A stretch of 64,000 nt of DNA. It comes from Actinomycetota bacterium (GTDB taxonomy: Bacteria > Actinomycetota > Geothermincolia > Geothermincolales > RBG-13-55-18). A program made the position numbers and the translations under genes. The notes below the pieces were generated by a model, which saw only the letters and a program-made list of their open reading frames with translations, had not been told where the DNA came from and searched no databases. Below, one piece after another: positions 2,915 through 43,574 of the stretch; the first letter of the stretch is position 1; each line of letters starts with the position of its first letter. Where the stretch lies: contig JACIXC010000002.1 of assembly GCA_014360655.1 (NCBI GenBank), positions 203,959 through 267,958 on the forward strand, read 5' to 3'.

Positions 2915-4138
2915 GTGGCGCGCACCTATTCCTACCGGGTGAGGGACCGGCAGGGGAAGATAATTAGCGGCAAGCTGGAGGCCGACAGCGAGCAGGCGGT
3001 ATCCCAGAAACTCCGCGAGATGGGGTATTTCGTCATAGGGGTCGAGGAGGAGAGGGTCCCCATCGCCAAGAAGGAGATACGCATCCTCCAGCCGAAGGTA
3101 AAACCAAAGGACATCACGGTCTTCACGCGCCAGTTCGCGACCATGATCAACGCGGGCCTTCCCCTGGTGAAGTGCCTGAGCATCCTGTCGGAGCAGACGG
3201 AAAGCCCCGTGCTCACGGAGGTGATCGCCGACGTGCAGCACGAGGTGGAGATGGGGAGGTCCCTCTCGGAGGCGCTGTCCAAGCACCCCAAGATCTTCAA
3301 GGACCTTTACACCAGCATGGTAAGGGCCGGGGAGATCGGCGGCGTGCTCGACGACGTGCTGTTGCGTATCGCCACCACGCTCGAGAGCGAGGACGAGATA
3401 AGGAGGCGCATCAAATCGGCCATGACCTACCCGGTCGCCATGTTCGCCATCTCCGTCCTGCTCCTCTTCGTCATGCTCATATTCGTCGTACCCATCTTCG
3501 AGAAGATGTTCCGGGACATGGGCGCCACCCTTCCTTTCCTTACCCGGATCATCGTGGGCATCAGCCATTTCCTGGCAAGCTGGAAGGGAGCGCTGCTCAT
3601 CGTCGCCCTCATCGTGGGTTTCGTCTTCCTGCGCAGGTGGCTCAAGACTCCGGCCGGTCGCCGCAAGCTCGACGCCCTTAAATTGAAGCTCCCCATCTTC
3701 GGGTCGCTGTTCCACAAGATGTCCCTCTCCCGTTTCTCGCGCACGCTGGGGACCCTGGTGGCCAGCGGCGTGCCCATCCTGCAGGCGCTGGAGATAACCT
3801 CCAACACGGTGGGCAACATGCTGGTGGCGGAGGCGGTGGACAACGTTCGCGCCGGCGTCAAGGAAGGGGAATCCATCGCCAGGCCGCTGGGGCAGAGCCC
3901 GCTCTTCCCGCCCATGGTCACCCAGATGCTGGCCATCGGGGAGGAGACGGGAGCCCTGGACACCATGTTGAACAAGGTCTCGGACTTCTATGATTCCGAA
4001 GTGGCGGCGACGGTGGAGGCCCTGACCTCACTGCTCGAGCCCGTACTCATCGTCTTCCTGGGCGTGGTGGTGGGCACCATCGTCATCTCGCTGTACATGC
4101 CCATATTCTCCCTCATATCCCAATTCTCCAAGGGTTGA
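2915..4138 (+). CDS. pilC: Type IV pilus platform protein PilC (GspF/T2SSF family)
   Basis: 407 aa, GTG start after SD GGGGAGGAG. Two T2SSF repeats with GEIGGVLDDVL and GEETGALDTML motifs. Three TM segments in the typical arrangement. Confidence 0.9.
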   Translation: MARTYSYRVRDRQGKIISGKLEADSEQAVSQKLREMGYFVIGVEEERVPIAKKEIRILQPKVKPKDITVFTRQFATMINAGLPLVKCLSILSEQTESPVLTEVIADVQHEVEMGRSLSEALSKHPKIFKDLYTSMVRAGEIGGVLDDVLLRIATTLESEDEIRRRIKSAMTYPVAMFAISVLLLFVMLIFVVPIFEKMFRDMGATLPFLTRIIVGISHFLASWKGALLIVALIVGFVFLRRWLKTPAGRRKLDALKLKLPIFGSLFHKMSLSRFSRTLGTLVASGVPILQALEITSNTVGNMLVAEAVDNVRAGVKEGESIARPLGQSPLFPPMVTQMLAIGEETGALDTMLNKVSDFYDSEVAATVEALTSLLEPVLIVFLGVVVGTIVISLYMPIFSLISQFSKG

Positions 4139-4719: not shown

Positions 4720-5781
4720 ATGAGCCCTAAGAAAGGAAGCGTGGCCGTAGGCCTGGACATCAGCTCCAATTCCGTCAAGGTGGCGGAGGTGACCATCGGG
4801 AAAGGGGAGGCCGTCCTCACCAACCTGGGCATCGTACACATACCCGAGGGAGTGGTGAGAGACGGCGAGGTGGAGGACGGGGTCACCCTGGCGGAGGCGC
4901 TGAAAGAGCTGTGGCCGCTGACGGGGATCAAGAGCAAGTCGGTGACCCTGGGCATCGCCAACCAGAAGGTCATCGTGCGCCCCATCGAGTTGCCTTACAT
5001 GGAGAAGGAGGAGCTGGAAAGCGCCCTCCGCTTCCAGGTTCAGGAATTCATCCCCATACCGGTGGATGACGCCATACTCGACTTCGACATCATCGAGGAG
5101 TTCATGACCGCAGAGGAGGAGCGCATGCTCACGGTGCTCCTGGTGGCCGCCCACAAGGAGATGATACAGAGTTTCATCGAGGTGCTGCGCGCCGCGGGTC
5201 TCTCCATAGCGGCCATAGACCTAAAGGCTTTCGCGCTTCCCCGCTCGCTGATCCCCATGGAGGCGCTGCAGGCCGGTTACGGGGAGGGGGAGGCGCTCTG
5301 CCTCATAAACGTGGGGGCCGGGATAACCAATATAACCATCCTCAAGGAGGGCGCGCCGCGCTTCGCCCGCTTCCTCCTGCGCGGTGGGGATGATTTCGTG
5401 CGCGCCGTCGTCAACAGGCTGGACATGCAGTGGGAGGAGGCGGAGTCGGTGCGCCGGGGCATGATCGTCAATCCCGAAGCCACGGGCGTCCTCGAGCAGG
5501 AGATCGTGAACTTCGTGGGCGAGATACGGCGCTCCATAGATTATTACGTGGCGCAGACGCAGGAAAGGGCCTTCAGCAAGGTGATCCTCTCGGGGAGCGG
5601 GTCGCTCACCGTCAACCTTGCGCAGGAGATGAACAGGGGACTGCGCCTGCCGGTAGAGATAGGGAGGCCTTTCCAGAACGTGCAATTGGGCAAGCTCCCC
5701 TATACACCCGAGGAACTGGCGGAGATAGAGCCCTCGGTGGCCGTGTGCGTGGGCCTGGCGCTTAGGGAGGTGGTTGAATGA
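4720..5781 (+). CDS. pilM: Type IV pilus assembly protein PilM (actin-like ATPase fold)
   Basis: 353 aa. N-terminal GLDISSNSVKVAEV motif, an actin/FtsA-like fold signature, and position directly before pilN. Confidence 0.9.
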   Translation: MSPKKGSVAVGLDISSNSVKVAEVTIGKGEAVLTNLGIVHIPEGVVRDGEVEDGVTLAEALKELWPLTGIKSKSVTLGIANQKVIVRPIELPYMEKEELESALRFQVQEFIPIPVDDAILDFDIIEEFMTAEEERMLTVLLVAAHKEMIQSFIEVLRAAGLSIAAIDLKAFALPRSLIPMEALQAGYGEGEALCLINVGAGITNITILKEGAPRFARFLLRGGDDFVRAVVNRLDMQWEEAESVRRGMIVNPEATGVLEQEIVNFVGEIRRSIDYYVAQTQERAFSKVILSGSGSLTVNLAQEMNRGLRLPVEIGRPFQNVQLGKLPYTPEELAEIEPSVAVCVGLALREVVE

Positions 5782-6614
5782 CCAGGATAAACCTCCTGCC
5801 TCCCGAGATAAAGGAGAAGGTCGAGCAGCCGCGACTGGTCCCCTGGTTCATCCTCATGGGACTGGTGACGCTGGCGATCATCGCCGGGCTCTACTTCCTG
5901 TTCAGCGCGCAGAAGGCGGGCAAGGAGGATACCCTTAAGGAAAAGCGCGCGGAACTCGAGGAACTGCAGAGGCAGACGAAGCCCATAGAGAGGTTCGAGG
6001 CCCAGCAAAGGGAACTGAAGTCGCTGCAGGAACTCTTCATGCAGGCTAACGCGGGCAGGATAGCCTGGGCCCAGATGCTCAACGACCTGGCCATGTACGT
6101 TCCGGAGGGGCTGGCCACCGCCTCCAATCCACGTGCCCCCACCATATGGTTGACCTCGTTGACCATCGACGCGCAGCCGCTGGAGGCCCTCGCGGGAGCC
6201 GCTCCCGGGCAAGCGGCGGCGGGCGGGACGCCCATAGAGATACAGGGTTACGCCACGCCGGCATGGCTGTGCATACAGACCTGGCTGCCCAGGGCCAGCG
6301 ACTTCAAGGCGAAGGGCTTCCTGGACGCCTACCCCTATTATTATTACTTCCGGGGTCACCCCAAGGTGGCGGAGTTTTTCGTGCGACTGCAGAACATGGA
6401 GGAATGGAGCGACCTCTGGATAACGAGCTCCACCCAGACCAATATATCGGAGACGAGGGTGGTGACGGTGGAGACCTCCCCCGGCGTCTTCGAGCGGCAG
6501 GAGGAGTCCTTCTCCGACTGGGCCATACAGTTCACGATAACGGCACGGTGGAACCCCGAGAAGGCCATTTGGGCGGGGGTTTCCGGGAAGGCACCCGAGA
6601 GCACGGGGGGTTAA
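5778..6614 (+). CDS. pilN: Type IV pilus assembly protein PilN (with long C-terminal extension)
   Basis: MTRINLLPPEIKE motif, a single TM (WFILMGLVTLAIIAGLYFLF), then a coiled coil. ATGA overlap with pilM. At 278 aa it is longer than a typical PilN. Confidence 0.85.
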   Translation: MTRINLLPPEIKEKVEQPRLVPWFILMGLVTLAIIAGLYFLFSAQKAGKEDTLKEKRAELEELQRQTKPIERFEAQQRELKSLQELFMQANAGRIAWAQMLNDLAMYVPEGLATASNPRAPTIWLTSLTIDAQPLEALAGAAPGQAAAGGTPIEIQGYATPAWLCIQTWLPRASDFKAKGFLDAYPYYYYFRGHPKVAEFFVRLQNMEEWSDLWITSSTQTNISETRVVTVETSPGVFERQEESFSDWAIQFTITARWNPEKAIWAGVSGKAPESTGG

Positions 6615-6617
6615 GGG

Positions 6618-7202
6618 ATGCGGTTAAGGATCGGCGCCGGTTTGAAGCTGCTGGCAGGAGCGATCGTGTGCGTGATCGTCCTGGTGCTGGGCCTGTTCCT
6701 GATCGTCTTTCCCCAGCGCAACAAGATAAGCGAGGTGGACGCGGAGATAGAGAACATGGAGGCGAGCGTTCAGGCGGAGCAGAACAGGCTCAGCCAGCTG
6801 AAGCAGTACGAAAAGGACCCCGAGCAGTTCACACGGCAGATCGAGGTGATCAAGGAACGCATACCGGAGAACATCGAGCTCGCCGACGTCATCGAGCAGA
6901 TAGATCACGCCGCCGAGGAAGCGGGGCTTGATTTCTACTCCTTCACGCCTTCCATACCCGTGGCGGCGGGCAATTACTACGTGATGACGTGCGAGACCGT
7001 GTTCAACGGAAGGTATTTCAACCTGGTGGAGTTCTTCAACCACATCGAGAGGCTGCCACGCTCGGTGAAGGTGGTGAAGCTGGCCATTAATGAGGCTGAC
7101 GCTGGGCTACCCTACATCCAGGCCACCATCACCATGCGGGTGTTCTTCACCAGCAACCAGGGTATAGAAAAAATCTTGACCACGCCCGGCGCCGGCGGAT
7201 GA
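6618..7202 (+). CDS. pilO: Type IV pilus assembly protein PilO
   Basis: 194 aa. N-terminal TM, a coiled coil (EIENMEASVQAEQNRLSQLKQ), then a ferredoxin-like C-terminal domain. Position after pilN. Confidence 0.8.
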   Translation: MRLRIGAGLKLLAGAIVCVIVLVLGLFLIVFPQRNKISEVDAEIENMEASVQAEQNRLSQLKQYEKDPEQFTRQIEVIKERIPENIELADVIEQIDHAAEEAGLDFYSFTPSIPVAAGNYYVMTCETVFNGRYFNLVEFFNHIERLPRSVKVVKLAINEADAGLPYIQATITMRVFFTSNQGIEKILTTPGAGG

Positions 7203-7229: not shown

Positions 7230-7943
7230 ATGGCTGGCACGAAGGAAACGGGTTTCCGCGGGAGCGGAAAAGCCGGCGCCCGTGACGACAGAGAGGGAGC
7301 CATGCACCGGCTGCTGCTGGGGCTTGCGCTTACCCTCATCGTAGTCGTGTCGCTGGTGCTTGCCGCGGAACCGGGCGCGGAGCGCGCGGGCAGGACTACG
7401 CTCTCCCAGGCCATGCTCTCCGGCCGCGGTACGATGGAACTGGACTCGAGCGGCCTGGCCTCGCGCGTGGTGGAGCAGAAGTTCCAGATCCACATGGAGG
7501 AGATGGACCAGCAGATGGGGGAGATCCCCTACGTGGAGGTCTGGGTGCTTAACGACCCCTTCTATCCCCTGATGGGAGAGGTGGGCACCCTGCGCGAGAA
7601 CAGCGGCAACCTCGCCGGCAAGGAATGGCAGATGCTGGGATTCCCCAACTACGAGGAGGGCGGAGGCACCACGACGGGCGCCCCGGTGACATCCGCCCCG
7701 TCCGCGGTGCCGGTGACGACGGACGTGAACCAGAGGGTGGTCATGGTCACGGACATCTACGAGATGAGGGGCATCCGCTACGCGGACATAAAGGTTAACG
7801 ACAACAAGTACCAGAAGCTCAAGGCGGGCAGCGAGTTCGCTGACGTCTTCAAGGTGCAGGAGATAAAGGACACGAGTACGCTCGTCCTGGTCTGTGGAGA
7901 CGAAGCGTACGAGCTGAAGGTGAACCAGCTGCGCAAGATCTGA
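7230..7943 (+). CDS. Membrane-anchored hypothetical protein in the PilP position of the pilMNO operon
   Basis: 237-aa ORF; an alternative start at ATG 7302 gives MHRLLLGLALTLIVVVSLVLA. One TM, a Pro/Thr-rich linker, then a beta-rich C-terminus (VVMVTDIYEMRGIRYADIKVNDNKYQKLKAGSEFADVFKVQEI). Followed by a terminator. Confidence 0.5.
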   Translation: MAGTKETGFRGSGKAGARDDREGAMHRLLLGLALTLIVVVSLVLAAEPGAERAGRTTLSQAMLSGRGTMELDSSGLASRVVEQKFQIHMEEMDQQMGEIPYVEVWVLNDPFYPLMGEVGTLRENSGNLAGKEWQMLGFPNYEEGGGTTTGAPVTSAPSAVPVTTDVNQRVVMVTDIYEMRGIRYADIKVNDNKYQKLKAGSEFADVFKVQEIKDTSTLVLVCGDEAYELKVNQLRKI

Positions 7944-11574: not shown

Positions 11575-11726
11575 GCTGGGGTAAAGGAAGTTCGATTAAA
11601 CGATTAACGAGGTGAAACGCAATTCGCGATGAAAGCATGTCGTAAGGCGGCGCAGGCGGACGAAAGAGGGTTGCAGGGGCATAAAGGCGGTCGCATATGA
11701 AAGGCGATTGTGCGGAAAGACGCAAA

Positions 11727-12254
11727 ATGAGCAGGGAAGATGGCTTCTCCCTCCTGGAACTGGTGGCGGTGGTGATGATATTGGGTATCTTCCTTCTCGT
11801 GGCCACGGTAAATTACGCCAATTCACGCAAGGGATTGGCGTTGAGAAGCGGAGTTGAGGAGGTCGAGAGGGCGATAACCCGATGCCGCAATATTGCCCTT
11901 CAGGAAGGCGTTGACGTTTACCTCGAGTTCTGGGATGCAGCCGGAGAACACCCCAATCAATACGCCATCTACCGGGCGTATCCGAACGGAAGCAACGAAT
12001 ACAACGATAAGGCTCCCACCGAGACCCCGACCGCAGCCTCCTCTTACACCACGGACGGCATGGGGCATTACTGGTTCAAGATAGCGGAGGGCGCCGTGGA
12101 GGTGGTGACGCCCTCCGTCTTCCTGTTCCAGAGAAGGGGGACGGCTGTGACGGTGAGCGTTGTGAGTCCCGCGGGAGGTAGTTTCCAAGTGACCTTGAGA
12201 AAGGCTGACCTGACGGGGACGGTCACCTTCAACGACCTGGGGGAGATCATCTGA
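11727..12254 (+). CDS. Prepilin-type minor pilin, GspH/FimT(FimU)-like
   Basis: Class III signal MSREDG|FSLLELVAVVMILG with Glu at +5 (the ORF-track start at 11697 is an alternative). About 170-aa mature protein with an ...NYANSRKGLALRSGVEEVERAITRCRNIALQ segment resembling the GspH/FimT family. Confidence 0.8.
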   Translation: MSREDGFSLLELVAVVMILGIFLLVATVNYANSRKGLALRSGVEEVERAITRCRNIALQEGVDVYLEFWDAAGEHPNQYAIYRAYPNGSNEYNDKAPTETPTAASSYTTDGMGHYWFKIAEGAVEVVTPSVFLFQRRGTAVTVSVVSPAGGSFQVTLRKADLTGTVTFNDLGEII

Positions 12255-12324
12255 ACATGTGGCGGGCGAAAAGGAGAGAGCGAGATACGAGAGAATACCG
12301 CACGGCGTGCAGGAGGAGGCGAGC

Positions 12325-15030
12325 ATGATGCGGCGGCTTGGGAGGGTTTTCAAAAATCTCGGTGACGACGCCGGTTTCTCCGTGGCGGAAGTCATGGTGG
12401 CCTTCATCATCCTGGCCTTGGCCCTCATACCCATGGTGAACATGTTCGATTCCGCCTTCCAGGTTTCCGCGGCGGCCACGGACATGAACCTGGCCCAGGA
12501 ATGCTTGCGGCTCTACAGCGAGCGGGTGAAGAACATCCCCTTCTATTATGCCCATTCCGCCGAGGACCAGAGCGTCAAAAAGGACGTAGACGATTTTTAC
12601 TGGGGCTCACGCTCGCCCGTCTACGACAACGGTTTCAGCGATGCGCCCTACGTGGAGATGAAGAGCAGCACGGTGGAGCCTTACAAGGGCATGAAGGTGG
12701 AGATACGCATGGCCTACCTGGACGAGGAACTGGTGAGCGGGAGGACTCTGCAGGAGGCGGCCGACCTCACTGTCCTGGACGAAAACTGGGGCCCCATGAA
12801 GATCTACGGCTACGACCGGCCCATTACCGATACGGGGAAAGCGTTGAACCTGATCCTCTACGAGGTGAGGGTGACGGTGGGCAGCGGCAGACAGTTCACC
12901 TCGACCAACCTTTACGCCTCGCCCACCGACGTGCTTGCCAACGTCTTCATAGACAAGGTGGTGAACGTGGACACGGACGCGAACAAAAAGGGGACGCGTT
13001 ACAACACCTACGGCGACTGCATCAGTGCCCCCCACACGCAGAGCAATATCAAGTTGCGCTTCTACGGCGAGGGCTTTAAGGCGCCGGATCTCGCCTCGGG
13101 GCTGGTGTCGGTGAAGCTGGTGCGCGTGGACGACAACGACATCACCCCGAGCAGCCTGGTGTACGGGGAGGATGCCTGGGGCAGATACCTCGAAGGAACG
13201 GTAACCCTCAACAGCGGGGGGGCCTCCCTGGCGCACAACCCCTGGTCGCCACGGAGGGTCGTCGGAGAATGGGATGCCTTCCTGGTGGTAAACCACGTCA
13301 TCTCCGTGCGCAACAAGGCGTTTGTGGTCGAATACCCCCTGCCGATATTCGGCGGGACCTCCGGTTTTTACGACAGCGACGGGGATCGAAAGGGATTCGA
13401 GAGAACCACCAACGAGGCGCTGTACTTCACGAACGTGGGTTATTTCACCCACATCAAGGCGCCGGAGGGACAGAACCCGGGCATCGGTGCAACCATCCAG
13501 CTCATACACACGCAACTTAATCCACAGACCAATCAGCCTGCGGACATCATCACGGGCACCAATTTCACGTTGACCACGTATACCGACCCCAAGGGCTATC
13601 AGGCATCCGGCCTCGCGGCCAGATGCAACTTCAATTTCGTAGGCCACATCGGCGGATGGTACAAGGTGCGTGTCATCAACTGCATAGACCGTGCCACGCC
13701 GAGCACGGAAGTGAAGGGCAATACCTATATCGATCTCCCCGAGAGCTTCAATTATTACCTCGAGGGACCGCCGGCTATATACGATGCCTATGTGCTGGGT
13801 TACGTGGAAGCCGATGGTTCGTTCACTCCCGTGGCGACATCGCAAAAACGCAATTTCGTATACGATGACCGGCCTTATATGTACAGGATCCGTATCATCG
13901 GCCTGAACTTCGACGAACAGGTCGCCGTCTATTTGGGAGCCGGTTCCGCCGATCCGCCGAACGGGGACAACGTGTTCGAAGCATATGACCGATACCATGT
14001 TGACGAATACACGCTGGACGTCGATTTCAATATCGCTCCAAGTGTGGCTGATGACCAGCGCGGCCTCTACTGGTTATACGCGAAAAACGCCAACGGGTTG
14101 GGAGCGGCCATGAACCCGGCATTCGATATCCGTCGCCCGGCGCCCATCATCTACGGTTACTCGGTCAACACCTACGGGCTGTGGCAGAACTACTACGATG
14201 TGCGGATGACCCTGGAGGGAGAGTGTTTCGACGACAATCCCCTCACTCCGCAAACCGATTTCGAGCTGCGCCTGAGGAAGAACACGGAACCGGCCCCCAC
14301 GGATTACCTGGTGGCCAGTGAGGCCATGGACGAGCCGGTGTCCTCGCTGTCTGGAAGGCGGGTGTCGGCCTCGCTGAACTTCATCGATTGCGACCTGGCG
14401 GAATGGGAACTCTACGGGGTCAATAGTGGCGGCGGGACGGACTCGCGCTACCAGGACGCCATACGCGGGTATGAATACCGTGCCGCTTTTGAAATAAAGC
14501 TGGGTGTTCCCGTGCTCCGAACGGCGGATGTCCCCTCCACGTCGGACCTGTATTCCTTGAAGATCAAAAGCCGTTACCAAGGTTGCGATACAGGGGGTGT
14601 GTGGACGGATTGGAGCGCATGGGACCTGAGCACGGAGGGCGAGCTGACCTATATAGATCCTATGGGACCGGTTCGCAACGCCTGGGCCTGGGAGAACGAC
14701 CCCGATCACGGAACCGTCAACCTTAGAACCAGGGGCGAGATGTATTTCGTGGAAGTCAGGGGCATGGGATTCGAAAAGGGAGGCACACTGAGCGTGCATG
14801 TGAAGAACGACAACGCACCGCCCCATACCGGCATTGACAAGCAGTGGACGGGCTTGCAGGTGAAGGCTAACCGTTCCCAGGCCAGGGTGTGGGTGGAGAT
14901 GGACGAGAGCATGAAATCTGCGAGCGGTCCGGACGAGGGCGGATTTGCGGAGATCAGGTTGCGAAACGACAGCACCGGGACCTGGCAGCCCTGGTACGTT
15001 GATCGCATAGTGTTCAAGAGGGAAGGGTAA
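12325..15030 (+). CDS. Giant modular pseudopilin (PilV/GspI position) with about 860-aa C-terminal extension
   Basis: ATG at 12325 after SD AGGAGGAGG. Prepilin motif DDAG|FSVAEVMVAFIILALAL with Glu+5. Four IPT/TIG-like strand signatures further on: IKLRFYGEGF, YRIRIIGLNF, VRMTLEGECF, YFVEVRGMGF. Confidence 0.8.
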   Translation: MMRRLGRVFKNLGDDAGFSVAEVMVAFIILALALIPMVNMFDSAFQVSAAATDMNLAQECLRLYSERVKNIPFYYAHSAEDQSVKKDVDDFYWGSRSPVYDNGFSDAPYVEMKSSTVEPYKGMKVEIRMAYLDEELVSGRTLQEAADLTVLDENWGPMKIYGYDRPITDTGKALNLILYEVRVTVGSGRQFTSTNLYASPTDVLANVFIDKVVNVDTDANKKGTRYNTYGDCISAPHTQSNIKLRFYGEGFKAPDLASGLVSVKLVRVDDNDITPSSLVYGEDAWGRYLEGTVTLNSGGASLAHNPWSPRRVVGEWDAFLVVNHVISVRNKAFVVEYPLPIFGGTSGFYDSDGDRKGFERTTNEALYFTNVGYFTHIKAPEGQNPGIGATIQLIHTQLNPQTNQPADIITGTNFTLTTYTDPKGYQASGLAARCNFNFVGHIGGWYKVRVINCIDRATPSTEVKGNTYIDLPESFNYYLEGPPAIYDAYVLGYVEADGSFTPVATSQKRNFVYDDRPYMYRIRIIGLNFDEQVAVYLGAGSADPPNGDNVFEAYDRYHVDEYTLDVDFNIAPSVADDQRGLYWLYAKNANGLGAAMNPAFDIRRPAPIIYGYSVNTYGLWQNYYDVRMTLEGECFDDNPLTPQTDFELRLRKNTEPAPTDYLVASEAMDEPVSSLSGRRVSASLNFIDCDLAEWELYGVNSGGGTDSRYQDAIRGYEYRAAFEIKLGVPVLRTADVPSTSDLYSLKIKSRYQGCDTGGVWTDWSAWDLSTEGELTYIDPMGPVRNAWAWENDPDHGTVNLRTRGEMYFVEVRGMGFEKGGTLSVHVKNDNAPPHTGIDKQWTGLQVKANRSQARVWVEMDESMKSASGPDEGGFAEIRLRNDSTGTWQPWYVDRIVFKREG

Positions 15031-15032
15031 AC

Positions 15033-15614
15033 ATGAGGCTAGTCGACTTGCCGGCACGCTGCAGCCGAATCGGTTCATGCGGGACCCACTCCGGCGAAGA
15101 GGGCTTCACCCTCGTCGAGCTCATCGTGGCCTTTTTCATCCTCTCCCTGCTGGTCTTCGCCACCTTCAACCTCCTGGACGCTCACCTGAGCGAGGGGGAG
15201 GTTGTGGTATCGAGTTCGGATATCGCGGAGGAGCTGCGCATGGCCATGGACAACATGGTGGACCAGCTGCGCACGGCAAGGACCTTTACGAGGGCCAGGA
15301 GCAGCGACCTCACCTTTCAAGGGTACGTGCTGGGGAGCAATGACCTTCAGACCGTGCGCTTTTTCCTCGACGGAGATAAGCTCAAGATGACCTGCACCGC
15401 TCTCTTCGCGGGCGATAAGGTCATAGCGAGCGGGGTGAAAAGCCTGGCTTTCGCCTATTACGACAAGGCGGATACCCAGTTGACGAACCCCGACGGCAGC
15501 CAGGCTATACGAGACAGCATAACCCAGGTGGAAATAGTGCTCACCCTGGCCAGGAGCGGCGGTGGCGTCGCGGTGGAGAAGACCGCCACCACCAGGGTGA
15601 GGATCAAGAAGTGA
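15033..15614 (+). CDS. Prepilin-type minor pilin, PilW/GspJ-like
   Basis: EEG|FTLVELIVAFFILSLLV with Glu+5. 193 aa. Starts 3 nt after the preceding stop. Confidence 0.8.
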   Translation: MRLVDLPARCSRIGSCGTHSGEEGFTLVELIVAFFILSLLVFATFNLLDAHLSEGEVVVSSSDIAEELRMAMDNMVDQLRTARTFTRARSSDLTFQGYVLGSNDLQTVRFFLDGDKLKMTCTALFAGDKVIASGVKSLAFAYYDKADTQLTNPDGSQAIRDSITQVEIVLTLARSGGGVAVEKTATTRVRIKK

Positions 15615-15670: not shown

Positions 15671-17941
15671 ATGGCTGAGAGGAAGAAAACGAAAGAGAGT
15701 CACGCGAACGTATGGCGGGGACACGGCCCTGCAGTTTCGCGGGGCGGGGACGAAGGCGGTTTCGCCATGCTCTTCGTCGTGTTCGCCATCATGGTCATCG
15801 GCATCCTCGGGGCTCTGCTCCTGCTCTACACCTCGGTGGCCCTGAGGAACGCGGTGGGCGTTACGCCCGCCTCCCGCGCGCTGGCCGCAGCGGAGACCGG
15901 GCTGGACGTGGCGCATGCGCGCCTGGCGGGGGGGAGCATCGAGGACAGCACGACCATCCCCACCTCCTACCTCTGGGACGGCAAGGGCTCCTACACGGTG
16001 ACGGTCACCAGGAACCCCGACTTCGGCGACGGGGACCCTTATGACTGGAAGATAACCTCGTACGGCGAGTACCGCGCCAACGTGGAGGGGGTGGAGAGGA
16101 CCTATTACCGCACCGTGGAGGAGGTGATCAGCTTCGCGGGCGGCAAGTATTACAACGCCCTGGATTACGTGCTGTTCTCCAAGGAGGGCAAGATAGACAT
16201 GAACATGGACGGGGATCTCAGGGCATTAAACATCACAACTTGCTCCATAAACGGTGATATCTATGCCGGGAAGGACGTGATCGTCTCCAATTCATCTTCT
16301 CTGGTGGGATCGAACAGCTTCAACCTGAACGGCGATATAATAACCGAAAAGGGTGACGTGATCATCAAAAAACGTGCCCGCTTCATAAGCAGCTCGAGCT
16401 TGAACATAAACGGCGACATATACAGCGGCGCAATGGCCTCTTCCGACAGCGATAACGGCGGTGTCCTCATCGAAAACAGGGCTTCCGCGGCGAGCGACGC
16501 AACGACGAACTTGGTAGGCAACATTCATTCGAGAGGGAAGTTAAGCGCAATATGGAACGATTCAAGCTTCACACATGGTGGAAGGGGCGTGAGCCTGTGC
16601 AACGAGATGTCGACTGGAGGCATTTTCTTTAGCCATAGCCTGAAGATCGGCATCACGGGGAACGTCTATTCGATAAGCGATGTAGTCGGAGAAAACAACA
16701 TCAGTGCGAGCCTCAGTTCGTGCAACGTCACCACCGATATCAAGGGTTCGGTCAGCAGCAAGGCGAACGTCACCCTTGACGGGAGCAGCCGGACCGGTAA
16801 TGTCGTAACCTCCCACAATATCAACGGGAGCATTTATTCAGGTAAGGACGTTACGCTTAACGTGAATGCCCATTACGGGGGCGCAGATGGTGGTATCACC
16901 GTGGGGGGGAGCGTTTATTGTGCCGGGAGATTCCAGGCATTGGCTGACAGTAATGCGGCTCTTGGTTCCTCCCGAGCCGCTGTGACAATCGACGGCAGCC
17001 TTTACGCACTGGGTAACGTGAACGTAAATTGTGATGCAGTGGGCTTAATTATTTCTAAAGCACGGTCCCATTTTTACGTGAAAGGTGGAGGCAGCGTCAT
17101 CAATCCTCCAAACCTCGCGGGGGGTTTCTCGTCCGGAGGGGAGATGACCTTACGTGCTTCGGAGTATCTTAACGCCGAGGCCATCCTGTACATGAAGCCG
17201 AACGCCAGGGACAAGACCGCAGACGGCCCGACGATACAGGAGGTGGGCGGAGGTGATGTGCAGGAAGGCACGAAGACGCCGCCGGTCTCCTTCAGCGACT
17301 CCTTGCCCGAGCCGATAGAGCCCCTTTCCTACAACGAAGTGTTGATGCCGCAGTGTGACTTCGCCTACTACGCGGAGGAGGCCAAGGCACAGATGGAGGT
17401 TGACAAAGATCCCCGCCACTATGTCACGGCGCCTCCGGGGGGCGAGTACTCGTTGACCCTCGGGGCGGACGACGTGAAATCGAGTGTATACGTCGTTTTC
17501 TGCAATGGCAACCTACTCATAAACTCGGTGACCGTTCCTGTAAACACCAAGGCCGTGTTGGTGGCAACCGGCAATATCAGGTTAAGGGAACTGTCGAGGC
17601 AGGGAGCCGGCGACGCCGAGTTCCAGATAATCGCCAAGAACAAGTTTTACTATGACGCAAGCGGCAACATGAAGATCGACGACAATGACCGGGTTTTCAT
17701 CTATGCCGCTCATGAGACCTATGACCCGACTACCGACCCGGTCAGCGTGGTCTACGAGATGGGGTGGTTCAAGAACATATACGGGCAGATCACGGCAAGG
17801 GGCGATATAGTACTCAACTCGAGCGGGTCCGCCTTCTCCTGGTTCCCGCTTGCGAATTACTCGATAACATATCGTAACCCGTCGGTGCTGGGTGAGGCGT
17901 TCCGCATCCCCTTCAAGGTGAAATCCTGGAAGGAACTGTGA
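15671..17941 (+). CDS. PilX/GspK-like pseudopilin with large beta-helix-like repeat domain
   Basis: N-terminus DEGGFAMLFVVFAIMVIGILGALLLLY resembles the PilX_N type and lacks Glu+5. About 9 repeats of (I/L)NG(D/S)IY.GKDV-type units. 756 aa. Confidence 0.7.
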   Translation: MAERKKTKESHANVWRGHGPAVSRGGDEGGFAMLFVVFAIMVIGILGALLLLYTSVALRNAVGVTPASRALAAAETGLDVAHARLAGGSIEDSTTIPTSYLWDGKGSYTVTVTRNPDFGDGDPYDWKITSYGEYRANVEGVERTYYRTVEEVISFAGGKYYNALDYVLFSKEGKIDMNMDGDLRALNITTCSINGDIYAGKDVIVSNSSSLVGSNSFNLNGDIITEKGDVIIKKRARFISSSSLNINGDIYSGAMASSDSDNGGVLIENRASAASDATTNLVGNIHSRGKLSAIWNDSSFTHGGRGVSLCNEMSTGGIFFSHSLKIGITGNVYSISDVVGENNISASLSSCNVTTDIKGSVSSKANVTLDGSSRTGNVVTSHNINGSIYSGKDVTLNVNAHYGGADGGITVGGSVYCAGRFQALADSNAALGSSRAAVTIDGSLYALGNVNVNCDAVGLIISKARSHFYVKGGGSVINPPNLAGGFSSGGEMTLRASEYLNAEAILYMKPNARDKTADGPTIQEVGGGDVQEGTKTPPVSFSDSLPEPIEPLSYNEVLMPQCDFAYYAEEAKAQMEVDKDPRHYVTAPPGGEYSLTLGADDVKSSVYVVFCNGNLLINSVTVPVNTKAVLVATGNIRLRELSRQGAGDAEFQIIAKNKFYYDASGNMKIDDNDRVFIYAAHETYDPTTDPVSVVYEMGWFKNIYGQITARGDIVLNSSGSAFSWFPLANYSITYRNPSVLGEAFRIPFKVKSWKEL

Positions 17942-17956
17942 AGAAGGACGGCGATA

Positions 17957-17989
17957 GGGGCGGCGGATGACCGCCGCCCCATATTTTTA
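17957..17989 (+). terminator. Rho-independent terminator of the minor-pilin operon
   Basis: GGGGCGGCGG-atga-CCGCCGCCCC followed by ATATTTTTA. A second hairpin, GGAGGC-ttcg-GCCTCC, follows at 17992-18007. Confidence 0.8.
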
Positions 17990-18309: not shown

Positions 18310-18951
18310 ATGTTGAGAAGGGAATACGCGGGAAAGGGCGGTAAGGAGCCGGCGAAGAAGGATTTTTTCTGGTTCCTCGCGCTGGCCGGCCTCATTCTGG
18401 TAGCCTATTTCACGTTGAATCTCGCCATAAACATGGTCTACGGGGTCGACCTGGCGGGGAAGGGTGCGGTCATAGTCGTCCGGGAGCCACGCTACCAGGG
18501 AGACCAGCTCGTCGACGAGGGGGAAAGCGTGGTGCTGCACGGGGTATCCGGCTGGGTGGCGGCCTTCTCGCCCTGGCTGGCGGTGAACGCCAACCTGCTC
18601 GCCCTGGGGGTGATGCTCTTCGGGATAGGCTTCGCCCTCACGGGGAGGGACCCGGAAAAGCTGGCCGTTACGCTCTTCAAGCTGCGCATCCTCGCCTGTT
18701 ACCTGCTCGCGGTGGTGCTGCTCATGCTGGTGCTGGGCATAGACCGGGTATATTTCCTCCCCCGTGCCGAGACCGGCGGGGTCCTGGGCTGGATAGACTG
18801 GTACATCTTCGAGTTCCTGGCCCACATCGTCTGGGCCGCGATCATCGCCGCCCTTGCCGTCTTCTTCCTCCGTTACGCGGAGAAAGGGCAGGGAAAAGAC
18901 GCCAATGGCCCTCGCGCGCTGGAAGGTGACGGTCGAGAGCCTCCCGACTGA
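18310..18951 (+). CDS. Hypothetical integral membrane protein
   Basis: 213 aa, SD GGAAGGAGAAAGG upstream of the ATG, about 4 hydrophobic spans. No recognisable family. Confidence 0.55.
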   Translation: MLRREYAGKGGKEPAKKDFFWFLALAGLILVAYFTLNLAINMVYGVDLAGKGAVIVVREPRYQGDQLVDEGESVVLHGVSGWVAAFSPWLAVNANLLALGVMLFGIGFALTGRDPEKLAVTLFKLRILACYLLAVVLLMLVLGIDRVYFLPRAETGGVLGWIDWYIFEFLAHIVWAAIIAALAVFFLRYAEKGQGKDANGPRALEGDGREPPD

Positions 18952-20130: not shown

Positions 20131-20512
20131 CTTACCCGGCGGCCGGGCCGCCGGGTAACGGTCTCGCTCGCAGGCTCGCTGCGACCGACCCTGTAATTCC
20201 CCGGGCTTGCTGGGTGCGTATATGTACTTCTTCCGGCCCGGGGCCTCGGGGTAATGGTCTCGCTCGGCGCCGCGCGCCTTTCCTTCTTCCGGCGGCCGGG
20301 CCGCCGGGTAACGGTCTCGCTCGCAGGCTCGCTGCGACCGACCCGGTCGTTCCCGGCCTTGGTGGTTGCGTATATGTCGTTCTTCCGGCCCGGGGCCTCA
20401 GGGTAACGGTCTCGCTCGGCGCCGCGCGCCTTTCCTTCTTCCGGCGGCCGGGCCGCCGGGTAACGGTCTCGCTCGCAGGCTCGCTGCGACCGACCCGGTC
20501 GTTCCCGGCCTC
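20131..20512. repeat. Tandem GC-rich intergenic repeat, about 2.5 copies of a 152-bp unit
   Basis: Copies begin near 20131, 20286 and 20438. 20286-20358 and 20438-20510 are identical over 73 nt. The 18-nt core GGGTAA(C/T)GGTCTCGCTCG occurs 5 times (20153, 20249, 20306, 20401, 20458). Contains the CGGCGG-ccggg-CCGCCG hairpin. Confidence 0.9.
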
Positions 20513-20589
20513 AGTTGTGTGGAAATAAGGGATGTTCTCCTGTGTTAAAATGGGACGCGTAGGCAGGAGCAACAAGGGAGAAAGGCGAC

Positions 20590-22106: not shown

Positions 22107-22432
22107 CTTCTTGCGGCGGCCGGGCCGCCGGGTAACGGTCTCGCTCGCAAGCTCGCTGCGACCGGCCCTGTGGTTCCCCGGGATGGGTGGTTGCATAAAG
22201 AGGCCGGGCCGGGGGCTCGTGCTCACTCCGCGACGCGCGGCCTCGTGATGGGTAATTCCCTTCCTCCGGGTAATCCCTCACTTTAAAGGGGACACTTCGC
22301 CAGGGCCATGATGGAGGCCGCTTGCGATGTCGTTCGCCCGACCCCCGGACCCGGCCTGGGTGGGTGGTTCAGTAAAGGCTCGCTGCGACCGGCCCTGTGG
22401 TTCCCCGGGCTTGGTGGGTGGAAATAAGGAGG
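22107..22432. repeat. Dispersed, diverged copies of the same repeat family as 20131-20512
   Basis: 22107-22202 carries CTTCTTGCGGCGGCCGGGCCGCCGGGTAACGGTCTCGCTCGCAAGCTCGCTGCGACCGGCCCTGTGGTTCCCCGGG. The core GGCTCGCTGCGACCGGCCCTGTGGTTCCCCGGG recurs at about 22375-22410. Both clusters end with GGAAATAAGG(G/A). Confidence 0.75.
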
Positions 22433-22595: not shown

Positions 22596-22603
22596 GGGAT
22601 AGA

Positions 22604-22635
22604 CCTTTAAACCAGTCCCGTGAGGCTGGCAAGGG
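22604..22635 (+). promoter_or_regulatory. PyrR-binding RNA loop (pyr attenuator)
   Basis: CCTTTAAACCAGTCCCGTGAGGCTGGCAAGGG resembles, as recalled, the PyrR binding-loop pattern (CCUUUAA..CAGUCC.GAGAGGCUG..AAGG), with stem CCUUU/AAGGG and inner stem CCAG/CUGG. Confidence 0.75.
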
Positions 22636-22661
22636 AAAAAGGAGAATAAGCGTGAAAGGAG

Positions 22662-22693
22662 ACCTTCCTGCGCCGGCCGCAGGAAGGTTTTTT
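22662..22693 (+). terminator. Attenuator terminator of the pyr leader
   Basis: ACCTTCCTGCG-ccggc-CGCAGGAAGGT followed by TTTTT, 9 nt before the pyrR start. Confidence 0.85.
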
Positions 22694-22695
22694 AA

Positions 22696-23253
<558 letters not shown>

Positions 23254-43017: not shown

Positions 43018-43166
43018 AAAGCGCCGTTCCCTCATCCGCAGTTCCGGGCCTTGACATACGTATTCTTGCCCTGCACGGGGATCCTTAAACGTCCCCGCGC
43101 CCTGCCCGGGGCTGACGGCCGAAGTCGGCGTGTTCCCCGACCGTGGCGGCGCGCCCGCGGTGGTTA

Positions 43167-43172
43167 TATAAT
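43167..43172 (+). promoter_or_regulatory. -10 element (TATAAT) for a probable leaderless transcript of the His-rich gene
   Basis: TATAAT ends 6 nt before ATG 43179. No SD in between. Confidence 0.35.
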
Positions 43173-43178
43173 ACGCTC

Positions 43179-43574
43179 ATGAGCGCACACGAGGACCGTT
43201 CGCCCTTGATCATGAAGATCTCGCTGCGCCAGGCGCGCGGGCGGCTGGAGGCGGAGTCGGTGACCCTTTCCCAGCTGGAAGCACTGGCCTCCCACCTGGG
43301 CTGGGAGGAGATGTCGTCGGACATCGCCGCCGCCCGGGAGGGCCTGGAGCGCGCCGCGCGGAAACTGGACGACGCGGTGGAAAAGGCGGTGAGGGAGCAG
43401 GCGGAGGCGGCGCACGCGCACGCCCACAGCCACGAGCACGCCCACGCGCACAGTCATCCCCATACCCATCCCCATGACCACGAGCACCCGGGAGAGAAGG
43501 ACGCGGAACACGACCACGAGCACACCCACGTGCACGAGCACCTGCACGAGCACCCCCACGACCACGAGCACTGA
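43179..43574 (+). CDS. Histidine-rich protein (putative metal-binding)
   Basis: ATG at 43179 within ORF 43143-43574. Helical N-terminal part, then AHAHAHSHEHAHAHSHPHTHPHDHEHPGEKDAEHDHEHTHVHEHLHEHPHDHEH, which is about half His. Confidence 0.6.
   Translation: MSAHEDRSPLIMKISLRQARGRLEAESVTLSQLEALASHLGWEEMSSDIAAAREGLERAARKLDDAVEKAVREQAEAAHAHAHSHEHAHAHSHPHTHPHDHEHPGEKDAEHDHEHTHVHEHLHEHPHDHEH

Follow-up and report, generated by a model that had tools for sequence, protein, structure and literature searches.

What is a pilin of about 900 amino acids (aa) doing in a gene position that encodes a small subunit in every studied type IV pilus system? This question is raised by a gene in a 64,000-nucleotide (nt) stretch of DNA from an Actinomycetota bacterium (GenBank assembly GCA_014360655.1, contig JACIXC010000002.1, positions 203,959 to 267,958 of the forward strand). 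The whole stretch is referred to below as the window, and all coordinates are counted from its first letter. Minor pilins determine what type IV pili bind and how pilus assembly begins. An original prediction made from the sequence alone had read the gene product, hereafter the giant pilin, as a pilin carrying a chain of immunoglobulin (Ig)-like domains that could act as an adhesin at the fibre tip. On the basis of structure prediction, homologue searches and analysis of the gene neighbourhood, we found that it is the product of a genuine, conserved single gene in a pilus system of the monoderm type in Geothermincolia-like Actinomycetota. The protein is probably a type IV minor pilin of modular build that belongs to the tip complex priming the pilus and displays an Ig-like stalk or adhesin.

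Gene, prepilin signal and predicted architecture

The open reading frame (ORF) lies on the + strand, ends with the stop codon at 15030 and has two candidate starts, GTG at 12259 (923 aa) and ATG at 12325 (901 aa). The product was taken as 901 aa because AGGAGGAGG, read as a ribosome-binding site, stands 5' of the ATG and the N-termini of the homologues line up with this start in the alignment. The protein begins with MMRRLGRVFKNLGDDAG followed by FSVAEVMVAFIILALALIPMV. This is a class III (prepilin) signal, whose leader ends in ...DDAG directly before FSVAEVMVAFIILALALIPMV, with glycine at position -1 (G17), phenylalanine at +1 (F18) and glutamate at +5 (E22). The residues G17, F18, S19 and E22 were invariant in all 20 aligned sequences, and the signal was attached to the long body in all homologues and distant clusters described below, in agreement with the canonical prepilin N-terminus originally proposed. 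The mature protein would have 884 aa, a mass of 98.7 kDa and an isoelectric point of 4.8. Scans of the giant pilin and all 20 homologues against Pfam and NCBIfam revealed only weak N-terminal pilin matches, such as a Pfam N_methyl score of 14.4 bits in the giant pilin (cut-off 21.2).

The architecture was analyzed with AlphaFold2, both as a full-length model built from the 20-sequence alignment (mean predicted local distance difference test score (pLDDT) 77.8, predicted template modelling score 0.53) and as a model of the pilin module alone (pLDDT 81.5). The gene and the predicted parts of its product are listed here, with the boundaries of the five domains D1 to D5 set by us on the AlphaFold2 model.

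12325..15030, + strand: gene of the putative 901-aa modular minor pilin (ORF, ribosome-binding site, homologues)
12325..12375, + strand: leader peptide, aa 1-17, with predicted prepilin-peptidase cleavage after G17 (invariant residues; weak N_methyl and TIGR02523 matches)
12376..12531, + strand: alpha1 helix, aa 18-69, hydrophobic in its N-terminal half and amphipathic in its second half (AlphaFold2 helix 20-69 in both models)
12532..12936, + strand: globular pilin head, aa 70-204, an alpha-beta loop and four strands (AlphaFold2 strands 110-113, 124-132, 176-184 and 190-198)
12937..13338, + strand: D1, predicted Ig-like, aa 205-338, motif IKLRFYGEGF (AlphaFold2 all-beta, Foldseek, motif conservation)
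13339..13770, + strand: D2, predicted Ig-like, aa 339-482, degenerate motif (AlphaFold2, alignment, detected in distant relatives)
13771..14139, + strand: D3, predicted Ig-like, aa 483-605, motif YRIRIIGLNF (AlphaFold2, profile match to repeats of TIG proteins)
14140..14472, + strand: D4, predicted Ig-like, aa 606-716, motif VRMTLEGECF (AlphaFold2, invariant G632/E633/C634)
14473..15027, + strand: D5, C-terminal beta region, aa 717-901, motif YFVEVRGMGF (AlphaFold2)

D5 may consist of two sub-domains, and its residues 760-766 form a Trp-rich segment. Comparison of the full model with PDB structures by Foldseek gave 68 matches with E <= 0.001; the best 50 of these were essentially all chains of Ig-like beta-sandwiches. 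The best was a Haloferax S-layer protein (1e-10), and others included the MG domains of complement C5, VEGFR and Bacteroides SGBP-B. In the viral library BFVD, the top match was an IPT/TIG-domain protein (3.4e-12), followed by proteins with Big-1, DUF11, FN3 and IPT_PCSR domains. In addition, the family profile weakly matched repeat units in large TIG-bearing proteins, and the D3/D4 region overlapped the Pfam TIG coordinates in two of them (P0055 and P0057). The original prediction had staked itself on Ig-like domains appearing in a structural model, and they did: AlphaFold2 predicted five beta-sandwiches, one (D2) more than it had noted, and Foldseek matched the model to chains of Ig-like domains. 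The hidden Markov models (HMMs) of TIG/IPT, Big and CARDB domains, which it had also proposed as a check, gave no match, either in the giant pilin or in any close homologue. Moreover, hhalign comparison among six segments revealed no significant internal homology (all probabilities < 8%), so the domains, being mutually dissimilar, did not arise by recent tandem duplication. Thus, the models support a body made of a chain of Ig-like, IPT/TIG-like domains at the level of the fold, without membership in the Pfam TIG family.

The four IPT/TIG-like motif copies reported at the outset were found where expected: IKLRFYGEGF at aa 242 (nt 13048-13077), YRIRIIGLNF at aa 520 (nt 13882-13911), VRMTLEGECF at aa 626 (nt 14200-14229) and YFVEVRGMGF at aa 807 (nt 14743-14772). 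Their common pattern, h-x-h-x-h-x-G-x-[GNC]-F, occurred four times against 0.017 expected from 5000 shuffles. The G-x-G/N/C-F cores were invariant or nearly so across all 20 homologues; G632, E633 and C634 of the D4 motif were invariant in the alignment, and the R-G-x-G-F motif of D5 was retained in distant relatives. The motif had been taken as the first strand of each sandwich, a placement that the AlphaFold2 model does not bear out: in D1 and D4 it coincides with the second strand, and in D3 and D5 with one further along the sandwich. D2, the fifth sandwich, has a degenerate version (LTFTNVDY or ALYFTNVGYF).

Pilin type, conservation and gene neighbourhood

The I-type family HMMs considered were TIGR02523 (PilV), TIGR01707 and NF047828. 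Among the homologues, the best family model was PilV TIGR02523 in 15 of 20 and XpsI (GspI) in the other 5, with a best E-value of 6.5e-8; on the giant pilin itself, TIGR02523 scored 17.1 bits over aa 16-59 only (cut-off 52.2). A canonical pilin of 129 aa, encoded in a Thermoanaerobaculia metagenome-assembled genome (MAG) within a three-gene set that is itself canonical, could be aligned to aa 17-130 of the giant pilin (27% identity, E 1e-9); this small protein matches ComGE best and also XpsI, PilV and GspI. The orthologous cassette carries the NCBI names FimT, PilV, PulJ/GspJ and hypothetical protein. On sequence grounds, the gene is therefore placed in the I slot with an I-type N-terminus, an assignment that does not extend to homology of the head with GspI or PilV. 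The PilV/GspI identity suggested earlier thus holds for the second position of the four-gene cassette and is unsupported for the fold of the head, which lacks a significant structural match to either protein. With a head of ~185 aa and five extra domains, the giant pilin is not a small single-domain protein of the GspI fold. As predicted, it is a modular pilin in the sense of Raynaud et al. 2021, with a pilin module (aa 1-204) followed by five predicted Ig-like domains.

The homologue search identified 19 homologues of 885-922 aa with 33-71% identity, all of them in MAGs of Actinomycetota; query coverage was 98-100% in 18 of the 19 and 79% in the most distant one (P0020). A further entry, 100% identical, was called from the upstream GTG with 923 aa, and one homologue carries the NCBI name PilV family protein. 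An exhaustive profile search gave 268 proteins at E <= 0.001 (27 at E <= 1e-30), including ~25 distant clusters of 780-930 aa in which the class III signal and the order from the head through D1 to D5 were retained. The head and D1 were the best conserved regions (mean identity 0.59-0.65, highest in D1 with 0.65), and D5 was the least conserved (0.48). The four-gene cassette (~185, ~900, ~190 and 500-970 aa) was syntenic across MAGs of Actinomycetota, including Candidatus Solincola and Candidatus Geothermincola; at ten of the related loci (L001, L003-L009, L011 and L013), the synteny was retained with giant pilins of 26-57% identity.

The head (positions 1-185) was also found on many other long proteins (480-1322 aa) with class III signals, whose C-terminal regions were unmatched by the D1-D5 profiles and in which Pfam scans, applied to the long relatives sharing only the head, detected no known effector domain. 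For example, at one locus of an Actinomycetota MAG (L014, 5947-12256), the same slot holds a 918-aa pilin that shares the head alone (28% identity, aa 3-183); genes for a 207-aa pilin and a K-slot protein of 971 aa come next. This sequence pattern suggests exchangeable cargo on a common carrier module.

The neighbouring features that bear on the pilus system are as follows.

2915..4138, 4720..5781, 5778..6614 and 6618..7202, + strand: pilC, pilM, a pilN-like gene and pilO (Pfam T2SSF, PilM_2 and PilO)
11697..12254, + strand: first cassette gene, a 185-aa FimT/GspH/ComGD-like minor pilin with prepilin signal (sub-threshold N_methyl, GspH and ComGD matches; orthologue named FimT family protein)
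15033..15614, + strand: third cassette gene, a 193-aa GspJ/ComGF-like minor pilin with prepilin signal (best HMM matches; orthologue named PulJ/GspJ family protein)
15671..17941, + strand: fourth cassette gene, K slot, 756 aa (conserved, with 498-971 aa, throughout the related cassettes)
17957..17980, + strand: strong terminator-like hairpin of 10 G-C pairs with a T tail, closing the four-gene cassette

The third gene starts 2 nt past the stop codon of the giant pilin gene. The N-terminal hydrophobic segment of the K-slot protein lacks Glu5, and the protein contains repeats of the NGDIY type; it matched no Pfam family, and its orthologue is a hypothetical protein at NCBI. Absence of Glu5 is expected of K-type subunits. 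The NGDIY-type repeats suggest a beta-helix. A six-frame scan of the window found prepilin signals only in three cassette genes.

The genes pilC, pilM, pilN-like and pilO lie 5-9 kb upstream of the giant pilin gene, and the orthologue of the ORF at 5778-6614 is named PilN domain protein. The upstream order is pilC, a small ORF, pilM, pilN-like, pilO, one further ORF and then aroC, aroK, aroB and aroQ, and the cassette is followed by genes for a 213-aa membrane protein, pepP, efp and nusB. The four shikimate genes thus stand between pilMNO and the minor-pilin cassette, and the order from pilC through pilO, the aro genes and the cassette to pepP and efp was retained in two related loci, L001 (giant pilin 56% identical to that of the window) and L003 (33%). 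Both of these loci also have the 237-aa ORF directly after pilO (7230-7943) and the 213-aa membrane protein after the cassette terminator (18310-18951), neither of which belongs to a Pfam family. In L003, a PilT-sized T2SSE gene precedes pilC; the window instead has genes for a TPR protein and an ABC transporter pair ahead of pilC, which means that the pilus ATPases must be encoded in another part of the genome.

Two features unrelated to the pilus genes were also observed. A GC-rich intergenic repeat of ~152 nt occurs in three tandem copies between pepP and efp (20137-20525), with one or two more after nusB (22114-22197 and 22341-22424), just upstream of a PyrR leader (22600-22696); it had no Rfam match, and its fold was no better than those of shuffled sequences (z = -1.3). 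The second is an ORF of 143 aa at 43143-43574 (+ strand), the C-terminal half of which is extremely histidine-rich (AHAHAHSHEHAHAHSHPHTHPHDHEH...) and whose product may be a metal-binding protein.

Proposed role at the pilus tip and competing explanations

If the giant pilin is a subunit of the tip complex, prepilin peptidase would cut it after G17 and alpha1 would anchor the 98.7-kDa mature protein in the membrane. The head would then pair with the translationally coupled J-like subunit and subsequently with the K-like subunit, a pairing proposed because, in the current model, a PilI-PilJ dimer recognises PilK and thereby licenses assembly (PMC13533445). The resulting I-J-K complex would prime the fibre and remain at the pilus tip, from which the chain of five Ig-like domains (~700 residues) would project as a stalk. 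The distal part of this chain, which is more variable, might bind a surface, a cell or a polymer ligand, on which pilus retraction could then pull. Adhesion at the tip by modular pilins has precedents (PMC8179133, PMC9934059), and such a role appears plausible by analogy.

Several results weigh against this proposal. In the best-studied monoderm system, the GspI-like PilA is small, and extra modules are carried by the other subunits instead. The scores of the PilV/GspI HMMs were all below their curated cut-offs, and the matches fell mostly within alpha1. When the pilin module alone was compared with the PDB by Foldseek, there was no significant match to a pilin, GspI or PilV, and the nearest solved pilin was the Thermus competence pilin 6qvf (E ~0.6, TM-score 0.29-0.34); a sequence profile search of the PDB also found no relative of the giant pilin. 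Pfam TIG (PF01833) had no match at E up to 1 in the giant pilin or up to 0.1 in the 20 homologues, and no Pfam adhesin or lectin domain was detected in any of them. Finally, the six-frame scan for prepilin signals and a survey of ~30 larger ORFs of the window identified no major pilin, pilB, pilT or prepilin peptidase (pilD).

A long ORF that starts as a pilin could also result from a fusion or assembly artefact, in which a short pilin gene is joined to that of a separate secreted Ig-domain protein. The gene does lie in pieces at two related loci. At L015, it occupies three frames, but the breaks coincide exactly with runs of N; at L012, it is split into 360 and 531 aa by one frameshift inside D1, through which the orthologue P0028 reads. 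Elsewhere, an unbroken ORF with the pilin N-terminus was present in the 19 homologues, in the ~25 distant clusters and, as a single ORF, at ten further loci. No relative was split into a pilin and a secreted protein, the finding that had been named in advance as decisive against the gene, and we therefore regard the artefact explanation as refuted and its residual probability as negligible.

Two other explanations accept the gene and dispute the filament. The giant pilin may be a membrane-anchored surface protein that never polymerises, the class III signal and alpha1 serving only as a cleavable anchor, as in archaeal substrate-binding proteins with class III signals, and the Ig chain spanning the wall, so as to present its distal domain outside, or forming a surface layer. 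The best PDB fold match is indeed an archaeal S-layer glycoprotein with Ig domains, no solved pilin matches the head significantly, and neither a major pilin nor an assembly ATPase was found in the window. However, the S-layer match is of a generic kind that any chain of Ig domains would give, E5 and the features of alpha1 on which packing into filaments depends do not vary, and the gene always lies between H-like and J/K-like pilin genes, tightly coupled to the J gene and near pilC and pilMNO; we consider this explanation unlikely. It is to a similar degree improbable that the protein belongs to a short pseudopilus like those of type II secretion or competence systems, with the Ig chain serving as piston head, as spacer across the wall, or as receptor for DNA or substrate. 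Such a role would agree with GspH, GspJ, ComGD and ComGF among the best HMM matches of the neighbours and with the best match of the closest small relative to ComGE, but the HMM matches are all below threshold and have no discriminating power. The machinery genes, on the other hand, are pilM, pilN and pilO, and in a relative pilC stands beside a PilT-sized T2SSE gene; this combination is characteristic of retractile type IVa-like pili, not of Com or type II secretion systems.

The tip-complex reading, which we thus favor, has a bolder version: the pilus tip may be built unlike that of any studied system, with an I-type stalk (perhaps ~20 nm by our estimate) and the very large, repeat-rich K-slot protein together replacing the PilY1-type adhesin as a tip organelle borne wholly by pilins. 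We regard this as a conceivable but rather doubtful arrangement. PilY1 family proteins were absent from the ~30 larger window ORFs scanned with Pfam, in which housekeeping genes were found.

Three aspects of the locus are new. The giant pilins form a conserved, previously undescribed family with ~700 residues that have no signature or solved relative; literature searches yielded no description of the family or of pili in Geothermincolia. The extension is carried by an I-type subunit, a component that is small wherever it has been studied, the monoderm model included, and it is paired with a similarly oversized K-slot protein, with no PilY1 found among the window ORFs scanned. A five-domain Ig-like stalk on an I-type priming subunit would extend the modular-pilin idea to the one tip subunit regarded as purely structural, and would provide a candidate adhesin for a deep-branching lineage of uncultured actinobacteria from hot-spring and subsurface samples.

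Comparison with known systems

The modular minor pilins of Streptococcus sanguinis, PilB (pilin and vWA) and PilC (pilin, Ig-like and lectin), are adhesins located at the tip (PMC8179133, PMC9934059). Like them, the giant pilin combines a class III signal, a pilin module and grafted non-pilin modules in a monoderm type IV pilus, with a predicted position at the tip together with other minor pilins; as in PilC, an Ig-like module directly follows the pilin part. It differs in having five predicted Ig-like modules, no recognisable vWA or lectin effector and about twice the length. Furthermore, the modular subunit here is I-type, whereas the GspI-like PilA of S. sanguinis is a plain 17-kDa pilin.

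A survey of modular pilins has catalogued more than 1200 proteins in 264 architectures, with multi-domain cases of up to 860 aa (PMC8179133). Its Dataset S1 includes the pilin-IPT architecture IPR012902-IPR002909 (5 proteins) and an 860-residue pilin of Candidatus Falkowbacteria with 12 repeats (PMC8179133). The original prediction had set the giant pilin against pilins with one grafted domain and considered a multi-domain stalk unusual, a claim of novelty that was too strong in view of this catalogue. Current models are not overturned by our results because multi-domain modular pilins are already recognised. The giant pilin resembles the catalogued proteins in its size range and in the succession of a pilin N-terminus and Ig-like, IPT or repeated domains; unlike them, its family has only a weak N_methyl match and its domains are mutually divergent. 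The family would have escaped the survey (PMC8179133), since it has no InterPro or Pfam match beyond this one.

With canonical PilV, GspI and ComGE (~100-190 aa), the giant pilin shares the type of N-terminus, the position in the H-I-J-K order and an alignable member of 129 aa. On the other hand, it is 5-7 times longer than these proteins, its HMM scores are below the cut-offs and it has no match to the GspI fold. Large minor pilins with beta-rich additions are also known from other pilus classes, such as CofB of the enterotoxigenic Escherichia coli type IVb pilus (pilin, beta-repeat and beta-sandwich) and ComZ of Thermus (a pilin with a beta-solenoid) (PMC8179133). In CofB and ComZ, as in the giant pilin, the extra domains were missed by sequence signatures, and both are located at the tip, where they bind a ligand or adaptor. 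They differ from it in pilus class and in the types and numbers of domains, and no sequence relation or significant fold relation could be found.

PilY1 does not belong to the pilins; its C-terminal domain is a beta-propeller, and its docking relies on beta-strand donation to the K subunit (PMC13533445, PMC7541494). The PilY1/PilC tip adhesins of type IVa pili are likely functional analogues of the giant pilin, each being a large adhesin on a minor-pilin priming complex at the tip. In contrast with these adhesins, the large body of the giant pilin is covalently part of the pilin, and Pfam gave no match to the PilY1 beta-propeller. A further parallel is offered by the PilV tip adhesins of the R64 thin pilus, minor pilins in which an enlarged C-terminal part sets the binding target of the pilus. 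These belong to a type IVb conjugative pilus, are about half the size of the giant pilin and have a C-terminus varied by a shufflon.

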